From positions 192,001 through 256,000 of IMG/VR virus record IMGVR_UViG_3300043177_000122: a stretch of DNA of 64,000 bases; one strand, written 5' to 3'. Position 1 is the first letter of the stretch; every line of letters starts with the position of its first letter. Below, in pieces: positions 17,791 to 40,789 of this stretch. Origin of the DNA: a virus. Taxonomy: Duplodnaviria; Caudoviricetes. Below the pieces are notes generated by a model. That model saw only the letters and a program-made list of their open reading frames with translations. It was not told the origin of the DNA and did not search any database. Both the position numbers and the translations under genes were made by a program.

Positions 17791-17869
17791 TCTAATTCAA
17801 TTGAATAACCCTCTATTTGTGAATAATCTAGCATTGTTTTAGTTATTGCGCACAAGTAGAGGGTTTTCC

Positions 17870-20603: not shown

Positions 20604-21356
20604 ATGACTAACTTGGACGATATCCTACAGCTTGCCAGCACTTATGAAGAACAGTGCTTACAGGGTCTGGTGAAGTTGGCAAAGATTCGCCAACTACCAG
20701 ATGGTAGTTATCGTGTACTTTCTCAAAAAGGCAAAGATTTAGGTACGTATAAATCTAGAAAGGCCGCCGAGAAACGTTTGCGTCAAGTAGAATTTTTTAA
20801 ACATCTTGATAAATCTAAAGCAGATGATCAAGGAAACGCTATTGCGGCTATTGATTTAACTAAGGCTGATGAGTTTAGTTATTCTGCTATTATGCGCAAG
20901 CTACGTCAAAAAGCTAGTCCTGAGCAAGTAAAAACATTCCTTACTTTGTTTAAATCTCAATTTGATAGAGCTGTGAAAAACAAAGTTCACAAACCAGAGA
21001 GAATAGCACTACAAAATGCTATCATCAAGTTTCATAAAATCCATCCCATCAAACTTGACAAGAAAATGGTTAAATGTGCAGCTATTGCCGAATTGGGCAG
21101 CCCTGATAGTGTGGGCAAGTACTTATCTGACATTGTTAAGTTTATGTTGTTTAGATTGCCAGTTCAAAAACGTCCAAGAGCAGCACAGATATTGAAACAA
21201 AAATTCTTAGTACTCAGTGAGAATGCTATTGCTGGCAAGAAAATGCCAGCAGCTTCTGTGTATGGTCAAGCTATTACGTTTATTAAGCATGTACTATTTA
21301 ATCAAGATGCTACTTATATTAGAAACGTACTAAATAGTTTATCGAGGAACTTATGA
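20604..21356 (+). CDS. Hypothetical basic protein
   Basis: LVKLA/K then basic domain YRVLSQKGKDLGTYKSRKAAEKRLRQVEFFKH. Confidence 0.6.
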   Translation: MTNLDDILQLASTYEEQCLQGLVKLAKIRQLPDGSYRVLSQKGKDLGTYKSRKAAEKRLRQVEFFKHLDKSKADDQGNAIAAIDLTKADEFSYSAIMRKLRQKASPEQVKTFLTLFKSQFDRAVKNKVHKPERIALQNAIIKFHKIHPIKLDKKMVKCAAIAELGSPDSVGKYLSDIVKFMLFRLPVQKRPRAAQILKQKFLVLSENAIAGKKMPAASVYGQAITFIKHVLFNQDATYIRNVLNSLSRNL

Positions 21357-22123
21357 TCATAAGATTTCGTCCAGTTATTCCTGGCATTTTATATCGTGGT
21401 TCAGCTCCAACACCAAGAGATGTATTAGAGTTAAAAGATAAACTAGGAATCAAAAAAATCATCAGCCTTGACAAAAATGCAGGCGAGAAAATCTCTCGCA
21501 CATGTAAGATGTTAGGTATTAATCAGGTCAAATTATATATAGATCATAATAGAAAGAGCTTATATCATTTTTTATCACAAGATATAAAAAAACTATTTCT
21601 ACAAGATGGCCCTACTTTTATTCACTGTCAACAGGGTAAAGATAGAACTGGATTAGCATCTGCATTAGTTAAATGTAAATTTCTAGGAGTAGATCCGGAA
21701 AAAGCAATTCAAGAAGCAAAATCATTAGGATTTGGTATTGGTTTACCAGAAAAAACAGTAAAAACTTTCGAGAAGATCATTAGACACTGTAAGCCAGAGA
21801 AAGATATTAATAACGCTGATATAGTGTCTTTAGAGAGGGAATATAAGAGCGATCCTCGTGATTCTTTCTTAGATGAAGCACATCAAGGATCATTCGCCCC
21901 GCACTTGGATCCTACCAAACAATATCCAATGGATGCGGTTTATCCATATATAAATGACCAATCACCTACTCGCCAAAATTATCCAGATACATCATTATTC
22001 TGGCATGATCCTGAGAAGGGTAATGTAATTCCTAATGTTGGTGAATTCGATAATGATGCTGGTCAAAGGGGTTTCGGTCCAACAGAAAACTACAACGGTT
22101 TCTTTTCAGAGGTAGGCCACTGA
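21353..22123 (+). CDS. Cys-based (PTP/dual-specificity) phosphatase with C-terminal extension
   Basis: ILYRGSAP and P-loop IHCQQGKDRTG (CX5R). Confidence 0.85.
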   Translation: MIIRFRPVIPGILYRGSAPTPRDVLELKDKLGIKKIISLDKNAGEKISRTCKMLGINQVKLYIDHNRKSLYHFLSQDIKKLFLQDGPTFIHCQQGKDRTGLASALVKCKFLGVDPEKAIQEAKSLGFGIGLPEKTVKTFEKIIRHCKPEKDINNADIVSLEREYKSDPRDSFLDEAHQGSFAPHLDPTKQYPMDAVYPYINDQSPTRQNYPDTSLFWHDPEKGNVIPNVGEFDNDAGQRGFGPTENYNGFFSEVGH

Positions 22124-23038: not shown

Positions 23039-26000
23039 ATGGTTATTGTTAAATTAGGCGAAGCCCACGAGATTAAATTGGAGAGTGTAGAGTCATGTCT
23101 TCCAGAAGTAAGCGCTGAGGTTTTAGAAAACTTCAAGAAGTTTGCAACTAATCTAAAGAAGATTGCCCCTAAAGCTGAAGACTTTCTATATTTCTCCGCT
23201 GTCATGATGCATGCAGCCGAAGCATCTGCATTAAATGAAGACGGTACACCTAGATTAACACTTAAAGGCGAACCAGTACAAGTAGGTTGGGACACTAGTG
23301 GTGGTACATGGAAATGGGCCAGTAATGATCCAAATGTTCGCCCATATAAGAATTCTAATGGCGATATATTTCCAGAAGCCGAACTAATTAAAGCTTACAA
23401 GAAATGGAAGCACAAGCCTCTTTGCGTGGATCATAAATCAAGTTCCGTAGAACACGTAAGAGGATTTATTGTTGATACCTATTATGATCGCAATCTCAAG
23501 AGAGTAATTGCATTATGCGCCTTAGATAAGGCAGGATTCCCTCAATTAGCTAGACAAATTTCAACAGGCGTTTCTAACTGTGTATCCATGGGCACCGCAG
23601 TAGGAAGAGCTATTTGTTATGATTGTGGTAGAGTCGCTCGTGCAGAGGCAGACTTCTGTAATCATATGAAAAACAAGACTTGCTACGGTGAAATTAACGT
23701 AGACCTCAACCCGATTGAGTTATCTATCGTTGTAAATGGTGCTGATCCTAGAGCCAACATCAAAAACATTATCGCCGCAGCTAATACCATGAACACTTAT
23801 CTAGAAAACCGTGCTAAGGAACTAGAAAAGGTGGCATCATCCTATCAAGCTACTATTATCAAGAGTAACGAGACAGGTGGTGCAGAGGTATCTGACACTA
23901 ATTCCATTACTGTCAGGGGTGAATCATTAGAGTCTTTCAAGCAAGATTTTGAACGAGGACTAGAAGAATTAGAGTCTCTTAATTCAAAATTTTCTCAAAA
24001 AGGTACTAATTCTTCAGCATCTAATCAATCGTCGGGGTCGATTGCCACGGATGACGGCGCACCCACGGATTCAGGATTGGCTCTCCAAACTCCGCAAACT
24101 AACAGGTTTGCATCCGCAGATGTAGAGGCGGAATCATTAGCTGAGCTTCAGCAAGTAACTGCGTCAATCGAAGCAACGCTAAGTCAAATGAAAAAGAGCT
24201 TGGATAAGTTAGCTAAAACTACTTCTACAAAAACACAAGAGGAAAATATGTCTGGATCAAAAGAAATTAATAAGCAAGCTTATTTCCAGGGTGGTGGTGG
24301 CGTTAATGAGCCAACTCCAGGTCAAGTTAAGTATCCAAAAGACGGGCTCAATGAGCAGCTTCGTGAGAACGAGGACAAGCACATGTTGGGTCAGCCTCCT
24401 TTCCCTGAGGTAGGTCCAGTCAATGGAATGCACCCTTCACCAGCTTCGGCTGATCCTTCTGGAGAGTTAGAGCGTAAGAAAATGCTTGCTCGTGCAGAAG
24501 CAGAAGAGCGTGCTCTCAAGCGTAACTCTATTGTAAATATGGTTAAGGATACCTTGAAGAACAAAGAGGCTTACTGGCAAGGCGCTGGTGGTGTTAACGA
24601 GCCAACACCAGGTAAAGTTAAGTATCCAAAGGATAAGCTAAACGAAGAGCTTCGTGATTACGAAGATAAGCAGATGGTTGGCCAATCACCATTCCCAGGT
24701 GTTGGACCAGTTGATGGTATGCATCCATCTCCAGCTTCTGCCGATCCTAAGGATGAACTAAAGCGTAAGCAGATGCTTGCTCGTGCTCAATTAAGAGCAA
24801 GATTTGTTAAAGCTGCCAATGGCGATGGTACTCAGAACAAAGCAAAAAGTGCTTGGGAAGTATTCCTAGGCGATAAGCTATTGCTTACTGCTTCTGTTGA
24901 TGAATTAGCTGGTGGAAATACTGCTGTCCTATATGACTCAATTGCAACTAAAGAATTTGGTGCCAAATTGATCGAAAAGGTTAAGGTACAAGGCGCTGAT
25001 GCAGTATCTAAGCTAATTAAGAAGGCACAGGCAACTCCTCCAGCTCCTCCAGCCGGCCCACCAGGTGATCCATCTAGCGCTACTCCAGGTGATATGGGTG
25101 GTGGCGATGCAGGCGGGCCTCCAGTAGAAGATGCTGGTAACTCTGGCGATCCAAAGCAACAAGCTTTAGATTTGGCTGAGAAAAATGTACAGATCAGCTC
25201 TGATTTGCAAGAGGCCGTTCGCGCTCTAACTGGCGAAAAAGCTGAAATGGGTAACTCAGATGCTGGCGGCGCAGCCCCAATGGCCGCTGATGACAGCAAA
25301 GAGTCTACTGCTTCTGATAAGTTTAGTTCAGCTACTCTGAACACTTTAAGAAGAGAACTTAATGGCGCACTAACTCATGCTATGAAGGAATCTATTGCAG
25401 AACTTGCAGAACACAAGCAAGAACTAGATATGATTGTTGGTATGTATGATAAGGGTGCTGTAACTCCGAACAACCAGGAATTTGTAGGAGCTATTGTAGA
25501 AGATGCTTTTAATGAGGCCAAGACTGCTATGGCAGATGGTTTCAAGTTAATGGCAGCTTTCGTTAAGTATGCTCGTGGTACTAAGGCCATTGTCAAGCGT
25601 GCTGAAATTGAATCAGAATTGCAAGCACTAGCCGAAGGAGATACCGAAATGAGCGACGAAAAAGATAGTCACTCCGCAGACGGCGGTGACTTGATGGATC
25701 TAATCAACGATACCAACGCAGATTTGGATGCCGTTCAAGAGATGATGGGTGATGATCAAGATCATGAATATCATGAAGGTGGCCTAGATTCACTTCTAGA
25801 AACCGATCCAATGGTCACTGATGAGCCACTAGCTATTGAAAATGAAGACCCTCTTACAGGTTTGGCTGACGACAATGATATCATCTTTGAACAAGGTGAG
25901 AAAATTCCACCAGAGTTGGCCGGAAAGAAGTTGACTATGGCATCTTATGATGATAGAGCAGGCCGCGCTGCCCTCAGGGCCAAGTTAGCTGCCGATGCTC

Positions 26001-26707
26001 TTGGTAAGGAAGAAGACGGAGAAATCCAGGATATGTCCAAGCAGAAGTTTAGTGACATGTTAGATGCTTCCCAGAAGCACACTGATGGTCAAACTGAATT
26101 GGACGTTAAGCCATCCGATAATCTCGGATTGGTAGAAACTGTTCAAGAAGTGAACAAGGCCATGATGGAAGTTGCAAAGGTTCCACCAAAGGTTCGTAAA
26201 GAAGCAGAAGTCATTCAGAAGTTAGTTTCTGAAGGCAAGCTTGATCCAAAAGACGTAGATGCTCTAGCATCCTACGGATTGGATGGTGAAGCAGTTGCTT
26301 ACTGGAAGAAGTACTTTGGTGAGGTTGAAGGCGGAAGCGAATTTGCCAGTGAAATGGTAAAGGAGCATGTCAAGTCTGCAATGGAAGAAGAACTTAACCA
26401 GTTCCGTGTCAAGTTAGCTCGTGCATACGAATTAGCTTATGATATGGCTGACCGTGGTCTCTGCTCTCACAATAGAGCAACCATCTCTGATCAGGTTGAT
26501 CAAATTATGAAGTTCAATGATGATGCATTCGAATCTCTAAAGAAGGTTGTTGCTCGTCATGAACCAGGTGTTCTCCGTAAGACAGTAGGTACCATTCCAC
26601 AAGTTGGTCTCAGAGTTGATGGAGAATTCTCTCCAGCTCAAGCAGTAGAGGATGACTCTTACGCCCAGTTGTCAGCCCTCTTTGGTAACAAAAAGGGTGT
26701 GTTCTAA
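23039..26707 (+). CDS. Prohead (maturation) protease fused to long scaffold/core region
   Basis: KPLCVDH, VSMG, PIELSIVVNGADP (HK97/assemblin-type motifs) with CxxC...CxH insert; long acidic helical C-terminal part. Confidence 0.75.
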   Translation: MVIVKLGEAHEIKLESVESCLPEVSAEVLENFKKFATNLKKIAPKAEDFLYFSAVMMHAAEASALNEDGTPRLTLKGEPVQVGWDTSGGTWKWASNDPNVRPYKNSNGDIFPEAELIKAYKKWKHKPLCVDHKSSSVEHVRGFIVDTYYDRNLKRVIALCALDKAGFPQLARQISTGVSNCVSMGTAVGRAICYDCGRVARAEADFCNHMKNKTCYGEINVDLNPIELSIVVNGADPRANIKNIIAAANTMNTYLENRAKELEKVASSYQATIIKSNETGGAEVSDTNSITVRGESLESFKQDFERGLEELESLNSKFSQKGTNSSASNQSSGSIATDDGAPTDSGLALQTPQTNRFASADVEAESLAELQQVTASIEATLSQMKKSLDKLAKTTSTKTQEENMSGSKEINKQAYFQGGGGVNEPTPGQVKYPKDGLNEQLRENEDKHMLGQPPFPEVGPVNGMHPSPASADPSGELERKKMLARAEAEERALKRNSIVNMVKDTLKNKEAYWQGAGGVNEPTPGKVKYPKDKLNEELRDYEDKQMVGQSPFPGVGPVDGMHPSPASADPKDELKRKQMLARAQLRARFVKAANGDGTQNKAKSAWEVFLGDKLLLTASVDELAGGNTAVLYDSIATKEFGAKLIEKVKVQGADAVSKLIKKAQATPPAPPAGPPGDPSSATPGDMGGGDAGGPPVEDAGNSGDPKQQALDLAEKNVQISSDLQEAVRALTGEKAEMGNSDAGGAAPMAADDSKESTASDKFSSATLNTLRRELNGALTHAMKESIAELAEHKQELDMIVGMYDKGAVTPNNQEFVGAIVEDAFNEAKTAMADGFKLMAAFVKYARGTKAIVKRAEIESELQALAEGDTEMSDEKDSHSADGGDLMDLINDTNADLDAVQEMMGDDQDHEYHEGGLDSLLETDPMVTDEPLAIENEDPLTGLADDNDIIFEQGEKIPPELAGKKLTMASYDDRAGRAALRAKLAADALGKEEDGEIQDMSKQKFSDMLDASQKHTDGQTELDVKPSDNLGLVETVQEVNKAMMEVAKVPPKVRKEAEVIQKLVSEGKLDPKDVDALASYGLDGEAVAYWKKYFGEVEGGSEFASEMVKEHVKSAMEEELNQFRVKLARAYELAYDMADRGLCSHNRATISDQVDQIMKFNDDAFESLKKVVARHEPGVLRKTVGTIPQVGLRVDGEFSPAQAVEDDSYAQLSALFGNKKGVF

Positions 26708-27350: not shown

Positions 27351-27581
27351 ATGTTCAAACAAGGCAGCTTTGAGGACGAACTCTATCGTTCGATGGAGAA
27401 GACTTTAGTCAAAAACCAAACCGAAAATAGACACGGATTCAATAAGTTAGCTAAAGCTGCTGATCTTTTGAATACTGCGGCTGATATTTTTGACCGCGCA
27501 GGTATGCACAAAGAAGCAGAAGAGGTTGTAAAATTGTTACAAGCTCTGGCCATTGATATTAAAGAAGGTCAAAATGGCTAA
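27351..27581 (+). CDS. 76-aa helical protein paralogous to N-terminus of next gene
   Basis: SFEDELYRSME...KAADLLNTAADIFDRAG vs LFENELIAGME...KAADCLHAALEILEEQG. Confidence 0.65.
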   Translation: MFKQGSFEDELYRSMEKTLVKNQTENRHGFNKLAKAADLLNTAADIFDRAGMHKEAEEVVKLLQALAIDIKEGQNG

Positions 27582-28491
27582 GTCGCTTTTCGAAAATGAA
27601 CTAATTGCAGGAATGGAGCAGCAATTGCGCAAGCAAGCCTTGGCTGAGAAGCCGAGCCTTACTAAGGCCGCTGATTGCCTCCATGCCGCTTTAGAAATTC
27701 TTGAAGAACAAGGATTGACTGCCAGGGCCGACCAGCTTTTGCAAATTCTACAAAAGATTGGACAAGCTAATGAAGCCCGTGATGTGCAGGAAATGCCATC
27801 GCTACCAGCATTAATGGAAGCCGGAATGACTCAACGTGATTTCCATGAGTTTTCGAAAGGTAATCCAATAGCAAAAGCGAAGTTCAATCTAGTATTGCGC
27901 AGTTTAGGATACTCTGATCATCAAATTGGTAATTTCATTGGTAAAACCAATGTTATGTCTGAAGATGATGCTAAAGCTGTGTTAGATCCAAATCGTTCTT
28001 TTAGTAAAATTTATGATTGGATGAAAGATCCAACTCAACCAGTAGATCCTACAAGCCCTCAGCCAGGGGAAACTATTTCTATGAAGAGTTTGCCAATCAC
28101 TGTTCCAGGAGACACTATTTCTTTTAAGAGCATGAAAGAACCAACTGTTCCAAACAAAGATGATTTAGTGTTCAAAAGTATTGCCGCTAAAAAACCAGGC
28201 AGGCCAGATAAGCATACTAAAAGATTAACTCCTGAAAAAATGCTTAAGAATTTAGAAGGTCATGGCTTTGTATTTAACTTAGCTGATGATGGTATGTTAG
28301 ATGTACCACCACCATTAGATATGAATAATCTGAAAGAATCGGATTTTGAGCCAGAATTTGGCGAATTTGCGACTTTATTAAAATCCGATATAGATGATTC
28401 TGATGATCTGTTTGCAACAGACATCAACGACACTCTAGAGGTATCAGAAAATGATATTCCAATAGATGATTTCGAGGACGAAAGAGATTAA
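27574..28491 (+). CDS. Hypothetical protein, putative inner-head
   Basis: GAAGG before ATG 27574; LRKQA/L; acidic tail. Confidence 0.6.
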   Translation: MAKSLFENELIAGMEQQLRKQALAEKPSLTKAADCLHAALEILEEQGLTARADQLLQILQKIGQANEARDVQEMPSLPALMEAGMTQRDFHEFSKGNPIAKAKFNLVLRSLGYSDHQIGNFIGKTNVMSEDDAKAVLDPNRSFSKIYDWMKDPTQPVDPTSPQPGETISMKSLPITVPGDTISFKSMKEPTVPNKDDLVFKSIAAKKPGRPDKHTKRLTPEKMLKNLEGHGFVFNLADDGMLDVPPPLDMNNLKESDFEPEFGEFATLLKSDIDDSDDLFATDINDTLEVSENDIPIDDFEDERD

Positions 28492-29327
28492 CTTTTTATA
28501 AATTCTAAATACTTTTTGTATTTTCTCGGTAGATAAATGGTAGCATCTTGATATAACCAATCAAGAATTTTTCTGACTTGAAGATTGCCGCTGACTGATA
28601 ATGTAGTGGTTATTTGATTGGTTTTAGGTCTTGATAATGATTGAGAGCAACTTATATTAAGTTGCTCTTTTAATATTTTGGCCGCTTGCTGACAAAATTG
28701 TTTGGTAGATACAATTTTCCAAATAGTATTAATGGCCTTTTTATTTTTAAATTTGTTTTGATAAATACAACCATTTCCATCACTATAGCCACGTAGAAAA
28801 TGTCTAATTAACTCATTAGGAACTGTTGTAGGAAAATTTAGAATAAGAGATTTATTGGGAACACAGCCATGCGAGATAAGTTGTTCACATATTTCTTTTT
28901 GGTTAATTCGAAAGTACGAGTAGCTATATGGAACTGCCCCAGGAGACTCAACTTTTGATATTTTGATAGGTGAAGATGGAGACATTATATCTCTGAACTT
29001 TTCTAAAATATATTGATCAGTAGATTTGAGTTTAAGAGATATTGTATAAGCATTATTTTTATTTTGGACACACCCATCAGAATAAAGAAATCCTAAGAAG
29101 TATGCCGCCTTCTCATTATTGATATCTTGAAAAAATGATTTATTGATGTCATTGTATATAATCTTTTTACCAATTTTTGTTTTAATTCCATTACGTTTTA
29201 GAATGCCAGAAATGCTTGTTTGAGCACAATTTAGTTGTGCAGCTATTTCCCATTGTTGTTTTCCACTGTTATATAAATTGATAATGGAGCTAATTTCGGA
29301 TTGTGTGAATTTTCTTCGCATAACCAA
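28488..29327 (-). mobile_element. LAGLIDADG homing endonuclease, double motif, N-terminal HTH
   Basis: AYFLGFLYSDG and HFLRGYSDGNG; YLPRKY. Confidence 0.85.
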
Positions 29328-29418: not shown

Positions 29419-30117
29419 GTGGATACCATTTTAAGGCTGGTCCAGGTGGGCAACACTTTGCCCGTCAGTTTCATTGTTGATCCATCCGCGGAATTTCAGC
29501 CGGGCCAAATTGCAGAATTAACAGTTATTGGTAATCAAGTTATGGCTACCGTTAGTAACGGAACGGCTCCTATTGGCGTTATCGATGATATTAAAACCAA
29601 GGCATTTACCAATGTTTCATGGAACGAAACAGTTATTGTTCCTGCTGTTGGTGTTCCTGGACCAAACAACACTTTAGTTACACCAGTTGATATAAAAGCC
29701 GAATTAAGAAAACCAAATATTGTTCCATCCAGTTTTAATTCTACTGTTAATGTAGTATTAAATCCTGTGAATGGAATTATTACTTTTGTGGCCGGCACTC
29801 TATTAAATTTTGATTTATCAGGTACAGGGCAGCCAAATGCCATCAAAGCAATTGTTAATTATACTTATCAAGTAGCTAATATTCCAGGAGATGATAGTAC
29901 TGCCGGTTCTGGTAGAATGACTGTTTGGTATGAAAGAATGTTTTTTCAAACTGACCAGTATGAAACCAATCAACAATATCCAGTTCGTGCTAATTTATAT
30001 GTTAGTGAAAATGGATTTTTGACTACTCGTAGACCAAGCCCAATTCATCCGGCCGTAGGTATGGTTACTGCGCCCCCTACTCCAATGAATCCCATGATTG
30101 AGGTTTTGTGGTTTTGA
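29419..30117 (+). CDS. Capsid cement/decoration-like protein, paralog of 37343..38095
   Basis: ILRLVQVG vs ALKLLQPG; GSGRMTVW vs GSGKTTCW; GFLT vs GLLT; start uncertain. Confidence 0.55.
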   Translation: MDTILRLVQVGNTLPVSFIVDPSAEFQPGQIAELTVIGNQVMATVSNGTAPIGVIDDIKTKAFTNVSWNETVIVPAVGVPGPNNTLVTPVDIKAELRKPNIVPSSFNSTVNVVLNPVNGIITFVAGTLLNFDLSGTGQPNAIKAIVNYTYQVANIPGDDSTAGSGRMTVWYERMFFQTDQYETNQQYPVRANLYVSENGFLTTRRPSPIHPAVGMVTAPPTPMNPMIEVLWF

Positions 30118-30762
30118 CTTGACGCGTCATTGTTTGACGCAGTTATACAAATACTTTGCAAGATATCCAGAGCAAACTGTACAATATATTCATTATGCAA
30201 TGTCAAAATACGGTGTTGATAATTTTGTTTTTGAGCCGATAGCCACTTGTAAAACTCAAGAAGATACGGATGAAGTAGAGTCTCTTTTAATTATCCAGTA
30301 TGATAGTAGAAATAAAAACAAAGGGTACAATTCAAGAATTGGTGGAATAGAGGGCGGCCGTGGCGCAATTTCTGATGAAACTAAAGAGAAAATACGCCAA
30401 GCCACTATTCGACAAATTGCTGAAAAGGACATCCTGCTGCTGGTCGTATAGTTTATCAAGAGACCCGTGAATTGATGCGTAAAATCAGACTTGAAAACCC
30501 AATTGAATACACTGAAGAAATTCGACAACACATGTCAGAAGTTCACATTGGAATCAAAGACTCCGAAGAAACCAAAGCAAAGAAATCCGAAAGTGCCAAA
30601 GAAGCTTGGGATAAACGAATTGATTATTCTCGAAAATGCGATGCTCCTGGTTGCGAGGTCTCAGGCAAAGCAAAATACAAGATAATCAATGGAATTCGTT
30701 ATTGTAACAAGCATGGTTTGCGACTACTGCGCTATAATAGATTAGATTGTTTAAGCGACTAA
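30098..30762 (+). pseudogene. Degenerate GIY-YIG homing endonuclease (N-terminus missing, frameshift near 30423-30426)
   Basis: IHYAMSKYGVDNFVFE...GYNSRIGG core without GIY-YIG motif; adding one A joins 30098..30451 to 30472..30762 (EKGHPAAGRIV...). Confidence 0.7.
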
Positions 30763-30774: not shown

Positions 30775-30805
30775 TTATAGACAATCTACTCATTTGAGGA
30801 CCACA

Positions 30806-32080
30806 ATGACTTTTAAACACATGAAATTTGAGGATTCTCCAACAATGCGTGCCTTGGAAAAGGTTGCTAAGGAGAGAGGTTTGGTTAAGCCAGAAACTCT
30901 TCAAAAGAAGGCGTCTATTGCTAAAAAGGCAGATTATACACCAACTTCTGATCTAATGGAAAATATTTTTAAGCTATGTTCTGGTTTAAGAGCATCTGGT
31001 CTGGAAAAAGAAGCACTTGAGATTGAGACCAGTTATTTTAACTACAAACGTGCTCAGACTCTTTATGAAACTTCAAAAGAAAAAGGCGAAGACCTAGTTC
31101 AATCAGCTCACCCAAAAGGTAGTCATAAATTAGAAGGTGTTGAAGGCGACGAGGCAACTATTGAAGATATTCTTGATCAACATCTTAAAATGATGAAGTC
31201 TGTTGAAAAGAAACCTACTGGTAAATTATCTTCTTCTCGTGCCATTCTTAATGCAGTTAAGGTAGTTTTAGCTCAAGAAGTGGCTCCAGAAGAAACCGAA
31301 GAAGAATTAAGTCGACAGCTTATTGCACAAGCCACTAAAATTATCCCTATGATCAATAGTTTGATTAGTAGACTTAAAGAATATGGAGGCAACGGTTTTG
31401 ATAAAGCTAAGGCTGAAGTATTTGGTAACACTATTACTAGTAATTTAGCTAAGACTCCAATTGGTAGAGAGCAACTAAATATTATTTCAGACAACTGGAG
31501 AAAATTAATCACATGGGCCAGAGGCGCTGGTAAGTTTGGTGGAGATTTTGGTAGTAAACTTGTTCCATGGGAAACGGATTCTGAAAGGGCGGGTGCTCAA
31601 AATTGGAATGCCAATATATCAGGCTATGCTAATAGGGTTGTTGCTGAGATTAATAAACTAGCACCGCTTGTTAATAAGAAGGCAACCATTCAATTTATGA
31701 AAGACAGTGGATCTTATCAAGGTCCAGGCCAGCCAGCTATGGGAGAGGGCGAGGATGATGCTAAACCAAGACAAGGCGTTGTAGTAGTTTTAAATCGTGA
31801 GGCTGCGAATATTGCCTCTATAGCTAATAATGCTTTATCTGATCTTACTAGATGGCAAGGCTGGATCACCATGAAGAGAGATTCTATGAAAAAAGCAGAT
31901 TTCGATACTGCAATGGCATGGCTTAAATCTCAATATACTAAGATTGATAATATCAAAAAGCAGTTCATGGAAATGAGTAATGATCCAGAAAGACAAAATC
32001 GTGAAGCTAAAGAGTTTACTAGTATGTTAAACGCACTGATTGCTGAAAATAAAGAGTTCAGAGAGGCATGGTTTCAATAA
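30806..32080 (+). CDS. Hypothetical protein, putative ejection/inner-head; N-terminus paralogous to 35929..37194
   Basis: GAGG SD; EKVAKERGLV vs VKIAQERGLV; QSAHP vs ENAHP; KKA/S, KRA/Q, VLA/Q. Confidence 0.6.
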   Translation: MTFKHMKFEDSPTMRALEKVAKERGLVKPETLQKKASIAKKADYTPTSDLMENIFKLCSGLRASGLEKEALEIETSYFNYKRAQTLYETSKEKGEDLVQSAHPKGSHKLEGVEGDEATIEDILDQHLKMMKSVEKKPTGKLSSSRAILNAVKVVLAQEVAPEETEEELSRQLIAQATKIIPMINSLISRLKEYGGNGFDKAKAEVFGNTITSNLAKTPIGREQLNIISDNWRKLITWARGAGKFGGDFGSKLVPWETDSERAGAQNWNANISGYANRVVAEINKLAPLVNKKATIQFMKDSGSYQGPGQPAMGEGEDDAKPRQGVVVVLNREAANIASIANNALSDLTRWQGWITMKRDSMKKADFDTAMAWLKSQYTKIDNIKKQFMEMSNDPERQNREAKEFTSMLNALIAENKEFREAWFQ

Positions 32081-33231
32081 TGAGTAACACTATATTTAAG
32101 AAGGGGGCAGTACCAAAACCATCTGGTGGACCAATTGCCGCCCCAAAAACTGATACTCCTCCTCCAAAAACTGATGGAGATGCTACTACTCCACCTACTA
32201 CCGCTGTACCAAAACCAGGCCAGTCTTCACAGTCAGCTAAGCCTACCGGTGGAGGAGGATATTACATTAATCCAGCTATCAAAGCAATGCAAGATGCAAT
32301 GCAACGATTTGCTGCCGGTGTAACTAAGTATTCTTTCAAGAAAACTAAACCAGGTGAAAAGCCAGTTGTAGATGACTCAAAAAAGCCATTTAATGATTTC
32401 ATTACCGAACAGTATATGGCAGATTCTCCTATCAAAGGCCAAGAGTACTCTACTGACCCAAATCGTCAAAAGTTACAAGAAAAACAGCCAACTGATTTAA
32501 TTGAGATGAATAATGTTATTGATGGTCTCAAAAGAATTGGCTCTCCTGGCACACCACCAGGTAGTGAATTAAAGGCTGATAGTATTTGGGATTTTAGAAC
32601 TAACAACGCACTCAAAAACATTTATGCCTTTGCTTATGCTTTAGTTAATCTATCTAAAGATTTTGGAAGGACTAATATACAATCTTTTAATGATGATGAT
32701 TTAACAAAAATGTCGGAGCTTATTCCAAAAGAAGATAATCCTGCCAACTTACCTGCGGCTGAAAAAACTGCTAAAGCAAAAGAACTAACTACATTAATCA
32801 ATAAACTATCTAATTTTTATTCTTACTATGTAGATGCTATTGCTCAACATCCAGCTTATGTAAGACATATTATTGGAGAAGAACCCCTAATTACTATCAA
32901 GCCGGGTGGTGGAGACCCTATTGCATTTACGCCTGAAGAGCAGAAGATGATGCAAAATGTAGATCAATTGACAGTAAATTTTGGACAAGGTCCATTGCCG
33001 TTAAGCGCTCTCAAAAATCTCAATTTTTTTAGAGAATTTTTGACTGAGAATATGAAGTATCAACCAAATCAAACTAGCAATCCAAAAATACTATTAGCTT
33101 TTCTAAAATCATTTTCCGATTTTGCAGATCAAGCTATTCAAAAAGCTCAATTAAAGGCCACGCCACAACCTAAGCAGCAACTTGATGCAGGTACGCCACT
33201 TAGTGGTACCGGTCCAGTCAGACAAGTATAA
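32080..33231 (+). CDS. Hypothetical protein, putative ejection/inner-head
   Basis: TAATG coupling; FKKGA/V then Pro/Thr-rich segment. Confidence 0.6.
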   Translation: MSNTIFKKGAVPKPSGGPIAAPKTDTPPPKTDGDATTPPTTAVPKPGQSSQSAKPTGGGGYYINPAIKAMQDAMQRFAAGVTKYSFKKTKPGEKPVVDDSKKPFNDFITEQYMADSPIKGQEYSTDPNRQKLQEKQPTDLIEMNNVIDGLKRIGSPGTPPGSELKADSIWDFRTNNALKNIYAFAYALVNLSKDFGRTNIQSFNDDDLTKMSELIPKEDNPANLPAAEKTAKAKELTTLINKLSNFYSYYVDAIAQHPAYVRHIIGEEPLITIKPGGGDPIAFTPEEQKMMQNVDQLTVNFGQGPLPLSALKNLNFFREFLTENMKYQPNQTSNPKILLAFLKSFSDFADQAIQKAQLKATPQPKQQLDAGTPLSGTGPVRQV

Positions 33232-33239
33232 GGATACCA

Positions 33240-34778
33240 ATGTCTTTTATTTATGACGATCTAAAATTACTAAAATCTCTAATAGTTGCTGGGGAGAAGT
33301 CTATCCAAAAGCGTGGTCAACAAACCGATCCACAACAACTAGCTACTCTTGTATTAGCTAAGAAGATGGCTCAGCAATTGATGCGTCAAGTAGATCCTAA
33401 TTCTGTACCAAAAGCTACGGCACCTATTGGAAGTGAGTTAGGTGAAGGAGCGACACCCGAATTAGATCGTAAAAATTTAGAAAGTCTTGGAGACTTTCTA
33501 AAATGGGCCTCTGATAATGCCATTACTTGGGATGGTAAGAGAGTTGCTTACGTTTATAACGATCCAAACCAACAAGGCCCGGTTGGTTATTGGAAATTCC
33601 TTACTTATAAAATTGATCGAGAGAGGGACCCTTATGATAGAACGGCCATTCAGGTTCCAGCTTATGCTGACAAAGATGCTCTTATCAAGCTTATTACTTA
33701 TTTAAGAGACTCTCAAGAGGCTAAGACTGAAAAAGTATTTGCTGTTATGTTGGGACGCCTTATTAATCAAACAAATCAGTTTTTGGAAAAGACTGAGCAA
33801 ATTGGTCCACGTACTGAACAAAAGCCAGCCGAAGCATTCAATGCAAATGATGTAGTTGATGGTTTTAAAGATACGACCATTAACATCAAAGATCCATATG
33901 CTGGAATTCAAGAATTTATGAAAGCAACTGACCCAAATATGATTCTCAATAGAATGACTTGGAGAGATGTTAGCTCTAAAGCTGGCTTAATAGATTGGCT
34001 TCGTGGTATGAAATTTATTGGAGAAGATGGTAAACCATATGATCCAACGGCCCCAGGAGTAGACCCATGTGGAGCAATTCATGTTCTTTACTTACGTGCT
34101 AAATATCTATCTCAGTATGCTACCGATAGACTACGTCCAGGTTTTTCTAAGCTTGAGCAAGCATACTTAAAACAGATTCAAACTCTGGGCCCACAGTTTG
34201 ATTTTAATGATCAAGCTTGTGCAGTAACCAAACCAGGAACTATTACTCCTCAACAGCCGGGTCAGCCGGGTCAGCCAGGCCAGCAAGGACAAAGTGGACA
34301 GCCTGGAAAGATTAGTCCGCAAGCACTTCAGCAATTAGCTGCGCTACGACCATTCCACACAAACAATATTGATTTTAGAGAAATTAAACTATTCTTAGAT
34401 CGATACAATCAACTAGCTAACAAGCCAGGTATTGATGCTATGATTGGTCAAATTAAGCACTCTATGGACATGGCTAATCGATTAATGGGAACTGCTGACG
34501 CTCCAATTCAGATTGATAACTTAACTGGCGATCAAGTGAAGGATTGGTCAAATCAACCAATTCCATTGTTGAATATTCTAAATACCATTATTTCATACTC
34601 TGGAAGAGTATACCAGGATTTCTTTAATGAGTTCAATACTATTCTTGGAGAAGATGTCGCGAGACCAGTTGAGCAACAACTTACTGTCCAACAAACTAAT
34701 CTTGGCACAATTTTACGTGTTAGAGATAATCTTATAAGAGAAATACCAACAAGCACTACCCCTAGAGGCAAACGATGA
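33240..34778 (+). CDS. Hypothetical 512-aa protein, putative ejection/inner-head
   Basis: AGGA SD; IQKRG/Q; QPG repeats at 34251-34307. Confidence 0.6.
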   Translation: MSFIYDDLKLLKSLIVAGEKSIQKRGQQTDPQQLATLVLAKKMAQQLMRQVDPNSVPKATAPIGSELGEGATPELDRKNLESLGDFLKWASDNAITWDGKRVAYVYNDPNQQGPVGYWKFLTYKIDRERDPYDRTAIQVPAYADKDALIKLITYLRDSQEAKTEKVFAVMLGRLINQTNQFLEKTEQIGPRTEQKPAEAFNANDVVDGFKDTTINIKDPYAGIQEFMKATDPNMILNRMTWRDVSSKAGLIDWLRGMKFIGEDGKPYDPTAPGVDPCGAIHVLYLRAKYLSQYATDRLRPGFSKLEQAYLKQIQTLGPQFDFNDQACAVTKPGTITPQQPGQPGQPGQQGQSGQPGKISPQALQQLAALRPFHTNNIDFREIKLFLDRYNQLANKPGIDAMIGQIKHSMDMANRLMGTADAPIQIDNLTGDQVKDWSNQPIPLLNILNTIISYSGRVYQDFFNEFNTILGEDVARPVEQQLTVQQTNLGTILRVRDNLIREIPTSTTPRGKR

Positions 34779-35878
34779 TATCCAATAGTGAAGTTAGCTT
34801 TTGTGTTGACACACTACTTGTAGAGACCGTATTAGCGGAACCAAAACTCTACAAAAAGGCTGGCTTCGTCCAAGATCTGCTTGGCAAAGTAAAAGACTAT
34901 TTTAGTCGTCAGATTGATCCTAATAATCCAGTCAAAAGTGTAATTGACATTTTGGCACCTGGCGCATTATGGTTATTATTTCAATCTATTGGAATTGGTA
35001 AGTGGGGTTTTCTACTTGCTACACTTATGGATGTATTCCATGTTGACGTAAGTGGTATGTTAACATCTCTTTGGAACAAAGTCAAAGAAATGATCGGTGG
35101 AGGACAGAAGACTTCGTCAGCAGCAGTTGATGCAGCTACTGAGTCTACTGTACAACAATTTAATGATCCCGCCACTCCACAAGAAGAGCAGCAAGGTATG
35201 ACTATCTTAAAGCAGAAACAAAATCCTACTGAAAATTCAGCAAGTGATCATAAAGTCTATAGTTCACTTGAGCTATTAAAAGATGCTAGAATGTTTAGAC
35301 TAGCTATTATAAACTATGAAGCTCAAACACTTAGACTTACTTCAGAAGGTTTTGATAAAACTGCTGGATTTTTTGGTAGTACTAAATCTAAAGGTGTTAG
35401 TTTACTAGGTAAAATTTTTGGTTGGATTATCAAGTTGGCCTTAGCTTCTGCGGGTTTAATGGTAGCTGGTGATGTTGCCAATGAAGTATTGGGTCGACCA
35501 AGCGCGTTAAGCGGCACATATCAGCGAGGCCAAGAGTCTCAAAATGAAGGAACTAGATCATCTACTCCTCCTAGAGCTACACAAACTAAATTTCCTTTCA
35601 AAGGAGATAGTCCGTTACCACAATCTTTTCCTCTAGTAAATAATGATAGTAATATTGAAAATATGCTAGTTCAATTTACTAAAGACACATACTCTGGTCT
35701 AGATGGTAAAGAAATCTTCATCCGAAACAGTCCGGCTTTTCAGGCTGTTAAAGATGATATTTCTTTCTTTAATGTACATAATCCCAATAGTGCAGCTATC
35801 TTTTTACCAAAGCATTATAGAACTAGAAGAGCTTTAGTAGATTACTATATAGATGATGTGGCTAAAAGCGCCTCATAA
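34775..35878 (+). CDS. Putative membrane-inserting ejection protein
   Basis: Hydrophobic segments LAPGALWLLF...WGFLLATLM and LLGKIFGWIIKLALASAGLMVAG; LYKKA/G, FDKTA/G. Confidence 0.55.
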   Translation: MISNSEVSFCVDTLLVETVLAEPKLYKKAGFVQDLLGKVKDYFSRQIDPNNPVKSVIDILAPGALWLLFQSIGIGKWGFLLATLMDVFHVDVSGMLTSLWNKVKEMIGGGQKTSSAAVDAATESTVQQFNDPATPQEEQQGMTILKQKQNPTENSASDHKVYSSLELLKDARMFRLAIINYEAQTLRLTSEGFDKTAGFFGSTKSKGVSLLGKIFGWIIKLALASAGLMVAGDVANEVLGRPSALSGTYQRGQESQNEGTRSSTPPRATQTKFPFKGDSPLPQSFPLVNNDSNIENMLVQFTKDTYSGLDGKEIFIRNSPAFQAVKDDISFFNVHNPNSAAIFLPKHYRTRRALVDYYIDDVAKSAS

Positions 35879-35928
35879 TTAAGGCATAACATGACATATC
35901 AATACAATTTCTTTTTAGGTGAAACCAC

Positions 35929-37194
35929 ATGAGAAAAAGCGAGATATTTGAAAGTTTTGTTAAGATTGCCCAAGAGAGGGGACTTGTGTCTCAAGCCGAT
36001 GAAAAATCAACTCGTGCTGAGCATACCGAAAAATCTTTTTCTGAGACCAATCCAAGAATGGACTCATTGAGTATTGAACAGATTAGTAAACTATATAATA
36101 CCAAACCACCAGCTCCAAAAGAGATGGAATACAAGCGCAATATTATCGAAAATGCGCATCCAGAGTCAGTTGTTGTTTCACCATCTTATGATAAATTAAA
36201 TGGTCTAGTTGAAAATGAAAATGAAGGTCAAGCTATCCGCGCCCGCATCGTCATGAAATATCCGGACGGTCATTTGACACAGCGTAAATATGCCAAGAAG
36301 AATTTGTTACTTTCTTTGGTTCGAGTTGGCAATGAGCTAGACGCTCGTGATAGTGAAGAACTTCGTAAATTAGCCGATGTTTGTTTAATGCAAGCTAGCG
36401 AAACTTGTTTTCATAAAAAAGCAGTTCCAGTAGTACCGATTGTTATTGGAATTGTGGGTTTAATAGGCGCAGTTTATGCTTATGAGCATATTACAGTGAG
36501 AGAAGGTTTGCAGTTTGATTATAAGGAATTGACAGATAAAATTGTGGCGCTACAAAAAGAAACTATGGAATATGGATTTGGTTATAAGTTTTCTGAAGAG
36601 TTCAATAGATTCTTAGCAGATCTTTCTAGTAAAGTTGTTATGCTTCATGATGCCGTTGTCAATTTTCAAAATGCTATGGCCAAAACATCGTTGCCAAAGA
36701 CTAGTGAAGAGCTTACTGGTCAAAATTTAATTAGTAATGCTTCTTCACCAGAAGGTAAAGCGGTGGAAGTTGCTTATGACAACCTTAAAAAGGTTATTGC
36801 AAATCTAGATCCATACTTTATAAAGGTACATCAAAATCTTAATGACCCAGGTTTTCGTGAAAGAGTGATTCAAGACCGTGGTTTTGTTACTGAATTGATT
36901 GATAGAATCCCAGGATTACGTGGCCAACAGAGAAATGAAGCACTTTTGGGCAATTTATTTAAGGATTTGAATGATTTGGTAGAGAATTACCAAAAAGATG
37001 TGGCTACGATTAAAGAAGGTACCGATAAAGCAACACAACAAGAGCAAAAAGCACAAGCTTTTATGAGTAGAACTCTAACAAATACGCCAGCTCCGACTCA
37101 ACAAGCCCCAGAAAAGTCTGTTCCTGAGAAAAAACCTGAAGATAAGGACGCATTTGATGCTTTAGAGGATGAGTTTAACAAGTTAGTCTCATAA
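35929..37194 (+). CDS. Putative membrane-inserting ejection protein
   Basis: FHKKA/VPVVPIVIGIVGLIGAVYAY followed by coiled coil. Confidence 0.55.
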   Translation: MRKSEIFESFVKIAQERGLVSQADEKSTRAEHTEKSFSETNPRMDSLSIEQISKLYNTKPPAPKEMEYKRNIIENAHPESVVVSPSYDKLNGLVENENEGQAIRARIVMKYPDGHLTQRKYAKKNLLLSLVRVGNELDARDSEELRKLADVCLMQASETCFHKKAVPVVPIVIGIVGLIGAVYAYEHITVREGLQFDYKELTDKIVALQKETMEYGFGYKFSEEFNRFLADLSSKVVMLHDAVVNFQNAMAKTSLPKTSEELTGQNLISNASSPEGKAVEVAYDNLKKVIANLDPYFIKVHQNLNDPGFRERVIQDRGFVTELIDRIPGLRGQQRNEALLGNLFKDLNDLVENYQKDVATIKEGTDKATQQEQKAQAFMSRTLTNTPAPTQQAPEKSVPEKKPEDKDAFDALEDEFNKLVS

Positions 37195-38224: not shown

Positions 38225-39238
38225 ATGAATATGTTTAGTGGTAAAGGCGAATTGAACGCCTCATCTTTAAAAGATGCATTGCAGGCATTGGTAAAGTATG
38301 CAGCCATTCTCGAAGAGAATGTTCCTGCCAACCAAGGTCTCGCCGGCCAACCAGCATTGAGCGATGAGAAACGCGATGAGTTAATCACTCGTGCTATCAT
38401 GACTCAGGACGGAAAGATTGCTTTAGCTCAGGCTATGGCAAACCCAATCCGTAGAAACCTAGACTACCACGGTATCGCTCGTCGTGCCTTGGTTGTTGAC
38501 CCACTACCACAGGGAGCAATTCCAACTTACGATAGAGATATCGATGTTGCCGCAGTTGTTATCTCTTCCAACGGTACAGGTCCAGAGTCCCGTGTATTCG
38601 GTGACCGTGTAGTTGTTCCTGAGTTTGAAATCTACGCCAACCCAACGGTTCGTATCGCTGAGGTAAAGCGTCGTAGATTCAACGTCATTGACCGTGCCGT
38701 TCAGAAGGCTCGTCAAGAGATTATGGCCCAAGAAGATGCTAACATCTTTGCCGCTCTTGATGCAGCTTCCTCTGTCGAGAACACTCTCACTGATATCGCC
38801 GATGCAGGTTTGATAAAGCGTGACTTGGTTGAAATCAAGTCACAGATTGAACGTTGGGACTTGGTAACCACCAAGTACTTTATGAACATCAACGAGTTCA
38901 CTGACATGCTCAAGTGGGGTTCTGGTGGTGGACAAGGTGTTGGCGGAGGAGACTTCGATCCAGTAACCATGCGTGAAGTTCTACAGACCGGTCTATATGC
39001 CCACATCTGGGGTACTGATATTATGGTATCCAAGATTGTACCTCCTGGTACGATATATGGCGTGGCAGATCCCGAATTCGTAGGAGTCATGCCAATCCGT
39101 CAGGACATTGAAGTGCTTCCTGCCGACGAACCAAAACAACTAAAATTGGGTTGGGTAGTTAGCGAAATCATCGGAATTGCTATAGTTAATCCAAGAGGCT
39201 GTGCCGCCGGAAGAAAAAGCGTAGTTATCGGGGCTTGA
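38225..39238 (+). CDS. Major capsid protein (HK97 fold)
   Basis: 337 aa after cement gene, AGGAG SD, strong terminator after; PEFEIYANP, AQEDANIF, LGWVVSEIIGIAIVNP. Confidence 0.8.
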   Translation: MNMFSGKGELNASSLKDALQALVKYAAILEENVPANQGLAGQPALSDEKRDELITRAIMTQDGKIALAQAMANPIRRNLDYHGIARRALVVDPLPQGAIPTYDRDIDVAAVVISSNGTGPESRVFGDRVVVPEFEIYANPTVRIAEVKRRRFNVIDRAVQKARQEIMAQEDANIFAALDAASSVENTLTDIADAGLIKRDLVEIKSQIERWDLVTTKYFMNINEFTDMLKWGSGGGQGVGGGDFDPVTMREVLQTGLYAHIWGTDIMVSKIVPPGTIYGVADPEFVGVMPIRQDIEVLPADEPKQLKLGWVVSEIIGIAIVNPRGCAAGRKSVVIGA

Positions 39239-39518: not shown

Positions 39519-40754
39519 TTAAAATCGACGTGCCATTTCTAGTAAACGATATTTTGTGTTCCGCTCTGGATTGCGTAGAATTTCCAGATAACACTCTTCT
39601 AGTATTTTTTTGATACGTGGGCCGGCGGGAATTCCCGCCGTCAATAGATCGTTACCATTAATTGCCATTTCTTTACGAGTTAAGACAACCAATCCTTTGT
39701 ATTCCTCCAACAATGCTCCAGCCGCCAAACCCATAGGCTCAGTCAACTGTAGAAATTGTTCTAGAGTCTCTTCCCAAGGGTCGGGGCTATGGTTCTTCAC
39801 GACCGCCATAAAGCTCTTATAAGCAAGAGCCGTATTCTTCTCTTGAAAAACCATAAATTTCTCGATAAGCTGAATTAAGAAGATAACTCGTTTGATTTCC
39901 TTATTAGAGAACTTCAAACCAATTAATTCTTCTTGCACCTGCTCAATCGGCAACTTGTTATACAAGAATGCTAATCTGACTTCCAAAGATCCTTGAACAT
40001 AATCTTGATGAGATAACAGTGGAAGTTGCTTGCCAGCAAGAAGCGGACAAGCAATATCCAAAGCGCCAGATTCTTTTAGAATTTGGAGACCATAAGAAGG
40101 GTATGCAGACAATAAAGTTTTTGACAATTCATCACTAATACGCTCCTTGGATACCTTTTTCAAAGTTTCAAGACTGCTTCTCATTCCTTGAAAAGTATTA
40201 TTATCAACTGGATAACCAAATCTGGCAGCAAATCGAGCCACTCGCATAATACGCAATCCGTCTTCTTGGAAGCGCACCAAAGGATTACCTACCGCTTTGA
40301 TCAAACCATTTTTAAGGTCTTCTACTCCTCCAAAAGGGTCTTCAAAACGATAGCTAATTGGATCATAAGCAATAGCATTGATGGTTAAATCTCGTCTAGC
40401 CAAATCTTTATTAACATCCATGATAAAGAAGACTTCATTGGGCCTACGGCCGTCAGAATATTCTCCTTCAATTCTAAATGTAGTAACTTCGAAATGGTTT
40501 TCAATACCTTCACCCATGCAAACCATCACGGTTCCATATTGTAGTCCAGAAGGAATGGTTTTTGAGAAAAGCTCCATAACTCTTTTGGGGCTAGCGTCAG
40601 TGGTAATATCCCAGTCCTTGGGCTTCTGCCCTAGAAGTAGGTCTCGCACACAACCGCCTACGATAAAAGCTTGGTAATTATGTTCTTGTAGTATTTTACA
40701 AATCTCAATTGCACGAGGGTGAATTAGATGTGTGGAAATAGGTTGATGTTCCAT
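39519..40754 (-). CDS. cca: CCA-adding tRNA nucleotidyltransferase
   Basis: VGGCVRDLLLG, DWDITT, EVTTFR.E..YSDGRRP, DLARRDLTINA, EDGLRIMRVARF, VSKERISDEL; ATG 40754 fits promoter spacing. Confidence 0.85.
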   Translation of the reverse strand: MEHQPISTHLIHPRAIEICKILQEHNYQAFIVGGCVRDLLLGQKPKDWDITTDASPKRVMELFSKTIPSGLQYGTVMVCMGEGIENHFEVTTFRIEGEYSDGRRPNEVFFIMDVNKDLARRDLTINAIAYDPISYRFEDPFGGVEDLKNGLIKAVGNPLVRFQEDGLRIMRVARFAARFGYPVDNNTFQGMRSSLETLKKVSKERISDELSKTLLSAYPSYGLQILKESGALDIACPLLAGKQLPLLSHQDYVQGSLEVRLAFLYNKLPIEQVQEELIGLKFSNKEIKRVIFLIQLIEKFMVFQEKNTALAYKSFMAVVKNHSPDPWEETLEQFLQLTEPMGLAAGALLEEYKGLVVLTRKEMAINGNDLLTAGIPAGPRIKKILEECYLEILRNPERNTKYRLLEMARRF

Positions 40755-40761
40755 GAAAGGC

Positions 40762-40789
40762 ATTCTAAAACTTAAAAATTACGTGTCAA
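40762..40789 (-). promoter_or_regulatory. Host sigma70-type promoter for cca
   Basis: Minus strand TTGACA-N16-TAGAAT; 7 nt between -10 box and ATG. Confidence 0.75.

Follow-up and report, generated by a model that had tools for sequence, protein, structure and literature searches.

A Lys-containing boundary motif and membrane-type helices in two head-module proteins of an uncultured phage-G-related megaphage

Two orphan proteins of a phage head module, g34775 and g35929, carry a conserved short motif upstream of hydrophobic or strongly amphipathic helices. They are encoded in IMG/VR virus record IMGVR_UViG_3300043177_000122 (358,993 bp), of which a stretch of 64,000 nucleotides (bases 192001-256000; hereafter the window, to which all coordinates refer) was analysed. 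The motif, hydrophobic-x-Lys-x-Ala (h-x-K-x-A), is a conserved and statistically enriched head-module signal that marks pro-domain boundaries, and it is probably a cut site for the head-maturation protease of the phage. Both proteins belong to the head-module core in a large clade of uncultured megaphages related to the 497-kb Bacillus phage G. They may be cargo of the head that is trimmed by the protease and, once ejected, inserts into the host membrane, a reading that is preferred here only tentatively.

Motif and helices in g35929 and g34775

The features of the two proteins are listed below (KD, Kyte-Doolittle hydropathy; pLDDT, predicted local distance difference test; P1 and P1′, residues before and after a cut).

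35929-37194 (+): g35929, a 421-residue head-module orphan; the ribosome-binding site AGGTGA precedes it by 7 nt
35929-36408 (+): conserved N-terminal pro-domain candidate of g35929, residues 1-160, 66% mean pairwise identity
36409-36423 (+): motif FHKKA, residues 161-165, candidate protease site at the pro-domain boundary
36424-36486 (+): Ala/Gly-rich hydrophobic helix, residues 166-186, starting at P1′, KD 2.36
36487-37083 (+): helical-bundle domain, residues 187-385, pLDDT about 70-90
34775-35878 (+): g34775, a 367-residue orphan head-module protein whose start overlaps the upstream stop (ATGA)
34847-34861 (+): site 1 of g34775, LYKKA, residues 25-29, candidate protease site
34862-34915 (+): amphipathic helix directly after site 1, residues 30-47
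34940-35038 (+): conserved hydrophobic helical hairpin, residues 56-88, KD19 1.72
35351-35365 (+): site 2 of g34775, FDKTA, residues 193-197, in a predicted disordered linker
35399-35470 (+): conserved helix, hydrophobic/amphipathic, residues 209-232, KD19 1.80; its small-residue face reads S-A-G-L-M-V-A-G
35585-35875 (+): C-terminal alpha/beta domain of g34775, residues 271-367, pLDDT 80-92

In g35929, FHKKA lies at the end of the conserved N-terminal domain. The helix begins with the next residue (V166, from nucleotide 36424), as had been read from the letters in an earlier note on this DNA; every string cited in that note was found where it had been placed. Among 120 homologues, positions P5 to P1 before the helix are L, I, F or M (119 sequences), variable, K (all 120), variable, and A, G or S (96, 21 and 3 sequences, respectively), and the linker before the motif and the residues after it vary. 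When 1.84 billion representatives were searched with a profile of just the N-domain, 513 representative clusters were matched. A diverged set was drawn up of 116 full-length representatives with a domain-end anchor and 50% identity or less. The motif lies 22 or fewer residues from the N-domain end in 106 of them, compared with a background of 15.6% per window, and a hydrophobic 15-mer follows it in 100 of these 106 (10 or fewer residues away in 63, at 20-29 residues in 23). Strictly conserved is the motif at the N-domain end, followed by a hydrophobic segment; direct abutment characterizes a subfamily that includes the window protein. The helix is Ala/Gly-rich across the family, with 25% A and 10% G versus 14.6% A+G in the other transmembrane (TM)-like segments of the genome. 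Further motif copies occur within the N-domain (FVKIA, residues 10-14, and LRKLA, residues 145-149), which is better conserved than the C-terminal bundle (44% mean pairwise identity).

AlphaFold models of g35929 and g34775, built on 14-sequence alignments, place the motif sites of both proteins in low-confidence, non-helical linkers. The N-domain of g35929 has a pLDDT below 50 despite its sequence conservation. A homo-oligomer prediction for four copies of residues 166-390 scored 0.00, which is neither support nor counter-evidence.

At site 1 of g34775, K27 is present in all of 120 homologues, A29 in 112 (G in 8) and G30 in 113. The most amphipathic 18-residue windows of the protein start at residues 31-32 (moment 0.52-0.54) and 205-206 (0.51), each right after a motif site. 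The hairpin region has predicted helices at 52-60, 62-71 and 76-87 and lies within residues 51-110, which share 59% pairwise identity. Site 2, followed by G198 from nucleotide 35366, had also been described as adjoining a hydrophobic helix. This did not hold, as the distance is 10-23 residues. Most homologues have R-L-T-K-x-A here. In a close subgroup including the window protein, the P1 residue of RLTK-x-A is lost (G, P, D or N), and h-x-K-[TMV]-A|G is found five residues later. Overall, 106 of 109 homologues have a linker motif 35 or fewer residues upstream of the helix, at 10-23 (mostly 13-20) residues before it. Site 2 shows turnover that keeps one motif copy in the linker. In the helix that follows, G216, S225, G227, M229, V230, G232 and D233 are invariant. 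The conserved adjacency of site and helix suggested by the earlier note is therefore found among homologues of both proteins, except that site 2 of g34775 stands apart from its helix and abutment in g35929 is limited to a subfamily.

Within the head block (window 3000-48000), the only hydrophobic segments are residues 56-88 and 209-232 of g34775, residues 166-186 of g35929 and a lipoprotein-type signal peptide at 46424. Genome-wide, 73 hydrophobic segments were found, and only the g35929 helix is abutted by the motif. A database search returned 366 homologues of g35929, none with a Pfam domain or functional name, and the 153 homologues of g34775 are all without a name; many homologues of both proteins are located on 480-510-kb contigs.

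In a diverged g35929 subfamily (e.g. P0277, P0280, P0323 and P0367), the hydrophobic region forms a long stretch of Gly-zipper type. It lies between the motif at the N-domain end and a second conserved h-x-K-T-S/G/A, which is followed by P-Q-A-K-N-V. Two cuts at the bracketing motifs would release this stretch as a separate peptide. Many g35929 homologues (L002, L003, L005, L013, L018 and others) end, after an acidic L-E-E-E stretch, in G-L-F-G-G-L-F-G-K, an ending that is missing from the window copy.

The motif in the head block and the prohead protease

The following further features are relevant to the motif and its putative protease (ORF, open reading frame).

23039-23836 (+): prohead serine protease domain of a 1222-residue protease-scaffold ORF, phrog_18299 match
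38288-38302 (+): LVKYA, residues 22-26, in an N-terminal extension of the major capsid protein
18326-18340 (+): LLKEA in g17846; the segment behind it is moderately amphipathic and not of membrane type

Occurrences of [LIVMFY]-x-K-x-A were counted and compared with expectations from shuffles of each protein. The motif occurs 5 times in g34775 (0.57 expected), 3 times in g35929 (0.78), 6 times in g30794, another orphan of the same gene run (1.18), and 11 times in the protease-scaffold ORF (3.15). It falls within the first 50 residues of 16 of the 44 head-block ORFs (3.6 expected), compared with 39 of 403 ORFs elsewhere (26.8 expected; Fisher odds ratio 5.3, p 1e-5). Per 1000 residues of head-block protein, there are 10.5 copies within the first 50 positions versus 2.5-5.5 further along. 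The portal copy reads h-x-K-x-A/G/S among relatives and thus small residues are tolerated at P1.

A candidate protease is encoded in the same module. Residues 105-213 of the 1222-residue ORF (23039-26707) match the head-maturation protease family phrog_18299 (E 1.9e-12), and the protease part is 36% identical to gp19 of phage G (E 6e-30). The strings ...V-D-H-K... and ...S-M-G... in this part would be the expected His/Ser pair of T4 gp21/HK97-type proteases. By sequence comparison, it is established that the phage encodes a serine prohead protease of this type. Motif copies in the ORF are located at residues 32-36 and 39-43 and, as LEKVA|S, at 262-266. Here as well as in phage G, the conserved start of the protease domain (P-K-x-E/D-D-F-L-Y) has two tandem copies in front of it, and L-E-K-V-A|S stands behind the end of the domain. 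Proteases of the gp21 and herpesvirus types self-process at positions flanking the protease domain (PMC9026906, PMC4498786). Thus, the motif copies bracket the domain at the positions expected for self-processing. A literature search found no known phage protease with Lys-x-Ala specificity, and no processing sites are reported in the phage G proteomics paper.

The capsid-protein extension that holds LVKYA is absent in phage G, and LVKYA is not conserved in distant capsid proteins (Lu11, Rctr197k), which speaks neither for nor against cleavage. LLKEA, followed by GLIDDIVNIV in the ORF at 17846/17870-19171, is present as the earlier note had read it and conserved in 7 homologues, yet within a generally conserved region. 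The segment behind it had been taken for a membrane-active N-terminus. Its hydrophobic moment is at the 90th percentile, that is, moderately amphipathic and not membrane-like, which corrects this part of the proposal.

Proposed processing of head cargo and rival explanations

In the tentatively preferred reading, the conserved N-terminal pro-region would bring g34775 and g35929 into the assembling prohead. The T4-gp21/HK97-type serine protease would then cut after hydrophobic-x-Lys-x-Ala/Gly/Ser at the pro-region boundary (after A165 in g35929, after A29 and A197 in g34775). The N-termini of the retained fragments would coincide with the start of an Ala/Gly-rich hydrophobic or strongly amphipathic helix or lie a few residues ahead of it. 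At infection they would exit the head with the DNA and enter the host membrane, where they might help genome entry or act in the membrane itself.

The conserved pro-region, the boundary motif, the internal motif copies, the faster-evolving retained part and the co-encoded gp21-type protease all match the processed cargo of T4 and of phiKZ/SPN3US (PMC9026906, PMC10052503). T4 capsid-targeting sequences are conserved and fused to divergent cargo, and the higher identity of the g35929 N-domain relative to its retained part (66% versus 44%) follows this pattern (PMC9026906). The gp21-processed internal proteins and Alt of T4 are likewise head-module cargo, conserved in an N-terminal pro-region and divergent in the part that is retained. 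Their motif is also short (three to five residues) and their protease is self-processing and of the same fold class (PMC9026906). T4 cargo is ejected with the DNA (PMC9026906), as the present fragments would be. In contrast, the T4 motif is L/I-x-Glu instead of h-x-Lys-x-Ala/Gly/Ser (PMC9026906), T4 cargo is without membrane-type helices, no sequence homology exists, and cleavage in the present case is predicted. In SPN3US, N-terminal propeptides of 20-254 residues contain several motif copies (PMC10052503). SPN3US and phiKZ, whose ejection and inner-body proteins are processed by gp245 and gp175, respectively, resemble the phage studied here as giant phages with several paralogous head proteins, long propeptides (111-254 residues) with several motif copies and a portal carrying a site, and their proheads are membrane-bound until proteolysis (PMC10052503). 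However, their proteases cut after Glu (A/S/G-x-E; PMC10052503), and they belong to an unrelated lineage with another capsid family, in which no hydrophobic helix is reported next to the cut. New features here would be the Lys at P3 and the small P1 in place of a Glu at P1, and two core substrates that start at or just before membrane-type helices. The fusion of protease and scaffold in the 1222-residue ORF recalls herpesvirus assemblin, and the herpesvirus R/M sites are cut after Ala at the protease-domain end (pseudorabies virus (PrV) YLQA|T, VQA|S), the position held here by LEKVA|S (PMC4498786). Lys at P3 is outside the herpes consensus and the kinship is at the level of fold class only (PMC4498786).

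The earlier note had seen these proteins as pore-formers of a putative protease-armed ejectosome and had likened them to T7 gp14-16 and to class I fusion proteins primed by cleavage. This was supported in part: the motif is enriched and conserved, marks pro-domain boundaries and brackets the protease domain, hydrophobic or amphipathic helices follow it in hundreds of homologues of the two proteins, and a gp21/HK97-type protease is encoded; links in sequence or fold to T7 gp14-16 and to fusion proteins were not found. The T7 proteins gp14, gp15 and gp16 are located inside the head and are proposed to cross the envelope after ejection. Unlike the proteins considered here, they are not protease-processed; no PHROG or Pfam match to gp14-16 was obtained and no such chain occurs among the structural matches of the window proteins. 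As for class I fusion features, neither g34775 nor g35929 has an N-terminal signal sequence or a C-terminal anchor, and their hydrophobic segments are internal. For this reason adenovirus protein VI is the closer analogy. In this internal capsid protein, the maturation protease cuts after residue 33 in front of a lytic amphipathic helix (residues 34-54), which stays hidden in the uncut form (bioRxiv 10.1101/857581). The geometry of g34775 site 1 is nearly equal, with a candidate cut after residue 29 and a helix at 30-47. Adenovirus infects eukaryotes, its cysteine protease and its capsid are unrelated to those considered here, and the analogy is one of mechanism only.

Several observations weigh against the insertion of trimmed cargo into the host membrane. 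The helix abuts the motif in only about 60% of the diverged g35929 relatives and lies 10-60 residues downstream in about 40%, so that unmasking exactly at the new N-terminus is not a conserved feature. A 21-residue helix with a KD of 2.4, made in the cytoplasm, normally inserts in the inner membrane; packaging would thus need shielding. The genome-wide motif count (211 versus 153 expected) is in mild excess, as amphipathic helices would give, and the invariant juxtamembrane Lys could serve topology rather than recognition. No member of the phage clade is in culture, and homologues of g34775 and g35929 are absent from phage G. Furthermore, sequence and fold searches revealed no link to any known ejection or pore-forming protein. 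PHROG scans of 14 g35929 homologues gave nothing above noise. The g35929 model had no match with E below 0.001 in a Foldseek search of the PDB, its only match in a viral library was one uncharacterised homologue, and its best match in a wide VIA search (Z 10) was generic helical and within noise for helical proteins. Weak matches to the ClyA family (AhlC Z 8.9, AhlB 8.2, SmhA 7.6, HblL1 and NheA 7.3, XaxA 7.2; ClyA itself Foldseek E 0.13) all score below about 13, the level that helical models reach by chance. The whole g34775 model reached a top Z of 6.7 in VIA and had no match among AlphaFold DB clusters, its C-terminal domain not having been searched alone. The ESM Atlas gave no usable match. 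A candidate relationship to T4 Inh, a minor head protein that inhibits gp21, was rejected: tblastn with residues 183-322 found Inh of T4-like Klebsiella phages at E 3e-5, and profile comparison gave a probability of 2.7%.

The strongest rival, which we nevertheless consider unlikely, is that g35929, and perhaps g34775, sits in the inner membrane as a cleavable tether. The N-domain would bind portal, scaffold or capsid and so bring prohead assembly to the membrane, and the juxtamembrane cut would free the matured prohead, leaving the helix and the C-terminal domain in the membrane. In T4 and SPN3US, proheads form on the inner membrane and stay there until proteolysis frees them, and in protease mutants they remain membrane-bound (PMC9026906, PMC10052503). 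The g35929 helix has true TM hydrophobicity (KD 2.36), its Lys-rich N-flank fits an N-in topology, and the cut site is on the N-domain side of the helix. The N-domain is also the most conserved part of the protein, like its presumed partners, the capsid (90-98%) and portal (91-96%) proteins. However, the protease acts inside the prohead, and its access to a membrane-proximal linker is unexplained. The conserved 200-residue C-terminal bundle would need export and has no assigned role. Diverged relatives have up to 60 residues between motif and helix, and their Gly-zipper-like stretch is unlike a simple anchor; g34775 has three hydrophobic or amphipathic regions instead of one anchor.

Alternatively, and with a similarly low probability, both proteins might be ordinary, unprocessed late membrane proteins, for example in lysis timing, superinfection exclusion or envelope remodelling, with the motif as a structural juxtamembrane element. 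Positive residues before a TM helix are common (positive-inside rule), which counts in favour of this explanation, as does the fact that cleavage at the motif is itself an inferred step. Head modules can hold membrane proteins, since phage G has an amidase-like protein and two small TM proteins before its capsid gene. What makes plain anchors doubtful is the precision of the motif. Topology would accept Arg or shifted positions, whereas Lys is found in exact register in 120 of 120 g35929 homologues, together with a hydrophobic P5 and a small P1. Moreover, soluble head proteins have the motif at their N-termini and it recurs around the protease domain, a g34775 linker with no adjacent helix keeps one copy despite motif turnover, and both genes are a strictly syntenic core of the head block in all loci.

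The least probable explanation appears to be that the motif serves for docking or capsid targeting, for instance as a short helix to which scaffold or capsid protein binds, and that the proteins are packaged uncut. An N-terminal motif in many head-block proteins fits targeting as well as cutting, and several copies are in predicted helices (e.g. LRKLA 145-149 of g35929), but the internal copies at domain boundaries (g35929 residue 165, g34775 residue 197, protease residue 266) are hard to explain as N-terminal tags, and a small P1 with a free P1′ is typical of protease sites. The docking and cleavage explanations are not exclusive because targeting sequence and cut site coincide in T4 (PMC9026906).

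Among these possibilities, the insertion of trimmed cargo remains our tentative choice. Its most specific form is improbable, namely that in a widespread clade of 350-510-kb freshwater megaphages a prohead protease with Lys-x-Ala specificity arms packaged membrane-inserting proteins by cuts right before their helices. If true, this would be a tailed-phage counterpart of adenovirus protein VI or of fusion-peptide priming, and would offer a first approach to the passage of megaphage DNA through the host membrane. A conserved cut-site motif that is easy to recognise would also permit sequence-based prediction of the processed head proteome in hundreds of metagenomic megaphages. Two core proteins would stand out as candidates, either for the membrane step of infection or for the tether that keeps proheads of giant phages membrane-bound up to proteolysis.

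The head module and its other genes

The major capsid protein (38225-39238) matches phrog_2522 (E 5e-80) and is 53% identical to gp27 of phage G. Upstream of its gene are those of a GpA-type large terminase (at 13945), the portal (at 15907), a 441-residue protein (17846/17870), a glucosaminidase, a tyrosine phosphatase and the 1222-residue ORF. The head module thus runs in the order terminase, portal, protease-scaffold, five orphans, decoration, capsid. As the earlier note had stated, the five tightly packed orphans (30794-37194; 367-512 residues each) lie immediately before the genes of the decoration-like and capsid proteins; scans of all five against Pfam and PHROG gave nothing above noise. 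Seventeen related viral contigs were recovered. In all 17 loci, g34775 and g35929 are located between the protease-scaffold ORF and decoration/capsid with no non-structural genes interposed, and they are strictly syntenic core genes of the head block. Identities among the related contigs are 90-98% for capsid, 91-96% for portal, 39-76% for g34775 and 37-48% for g35929. A nucleotide search of the region against 50,697 phage records had zero matches, and a scan for promoters and terminators found no signal above shuffled background.

The remaining three orphans form one entry.

30806-34778 (+): g30794, g32068 and g33240, each with a conserved N-terminal h-x-K-x-A/G and a fast-evolving remainder

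In g30794 (30806-32080), the first approximately 155 residues are highly conserved and the rest is unalignable among relatives with 90-98% identical capsid proteins. Hypervariable cargo fused to a conserved targeting region would show this pattern. The N-domains of g30794 and g35929 share F/L-x-K-x-A-x-E-R-G-L-V and A-H-P. Their profile alignment (hhalign probability 27%, E 7e-4, 64 columns) is suggestive only, and the N-region of g30794 may be a distant paralogue of that of g35929. All members of the g32068 family (32068-33231) start with a short leader that has h-x-K-x-A/G at its end and leads into a Pro/Gly-rich linker. In most homologues D-G-x-W-G-P-R-T-N-A-A-L is present, a string similar to the core of peptidoglycan-binding domain 1; the window copy is degenerate (D-S-I-W-D-F-R-T). 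Pfam searches of the homologues did not confirm a peptidoglycan-binding domain, the best match being PG_binding_3 in one member (E 0.1).

Two enzymes encoded between portal and protease also contain the motif. The tyrosine/dual-specificity phosphatase (21353-22123) has LDKNA at residues 39-43, and the glucosaminidase (19181-20197) has FRKAA and LYKAA at residues 204-220; both are candidates for packaged enzymes. A 76-residue ORF (27351-27581) contains three motif copies (0.23 expected) and has a K-A-A-D-x-L helical module in common with the N-terminus of the next protein (27553-28491).

In phage G (L019, 16568-19171), an amidase-like protein with a programmed-frameshift annotation and two small proteins with N-terminal TM segments are encoded just before decoration and capsid. 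These genes look like a lysis cassette in the place held here by the five orphans. In the window, the gene that directly follows the capsid gene lies on the opposite strand (39519-40763, minus strand) and encodes a CCA-adding tRNA nucleotidyltransferase. A LAGLIDADG-type endonuclease gene (28488-29327, minus strand) and a small GIY-YIG-looking ORF (30098-30451, plus strand) lie inside the head module. Neither is found at these places in relatives, which suggests selfish insertions. In one relative (L008, 5205-7992), the major capsid gene is split by an insertion of approximately 1.8 kb that encodes a 424-residue LAGLIDADG_2 homing endonuclease with helix-turn-helix domains (E 2e-39) and is therefore probably an intron.

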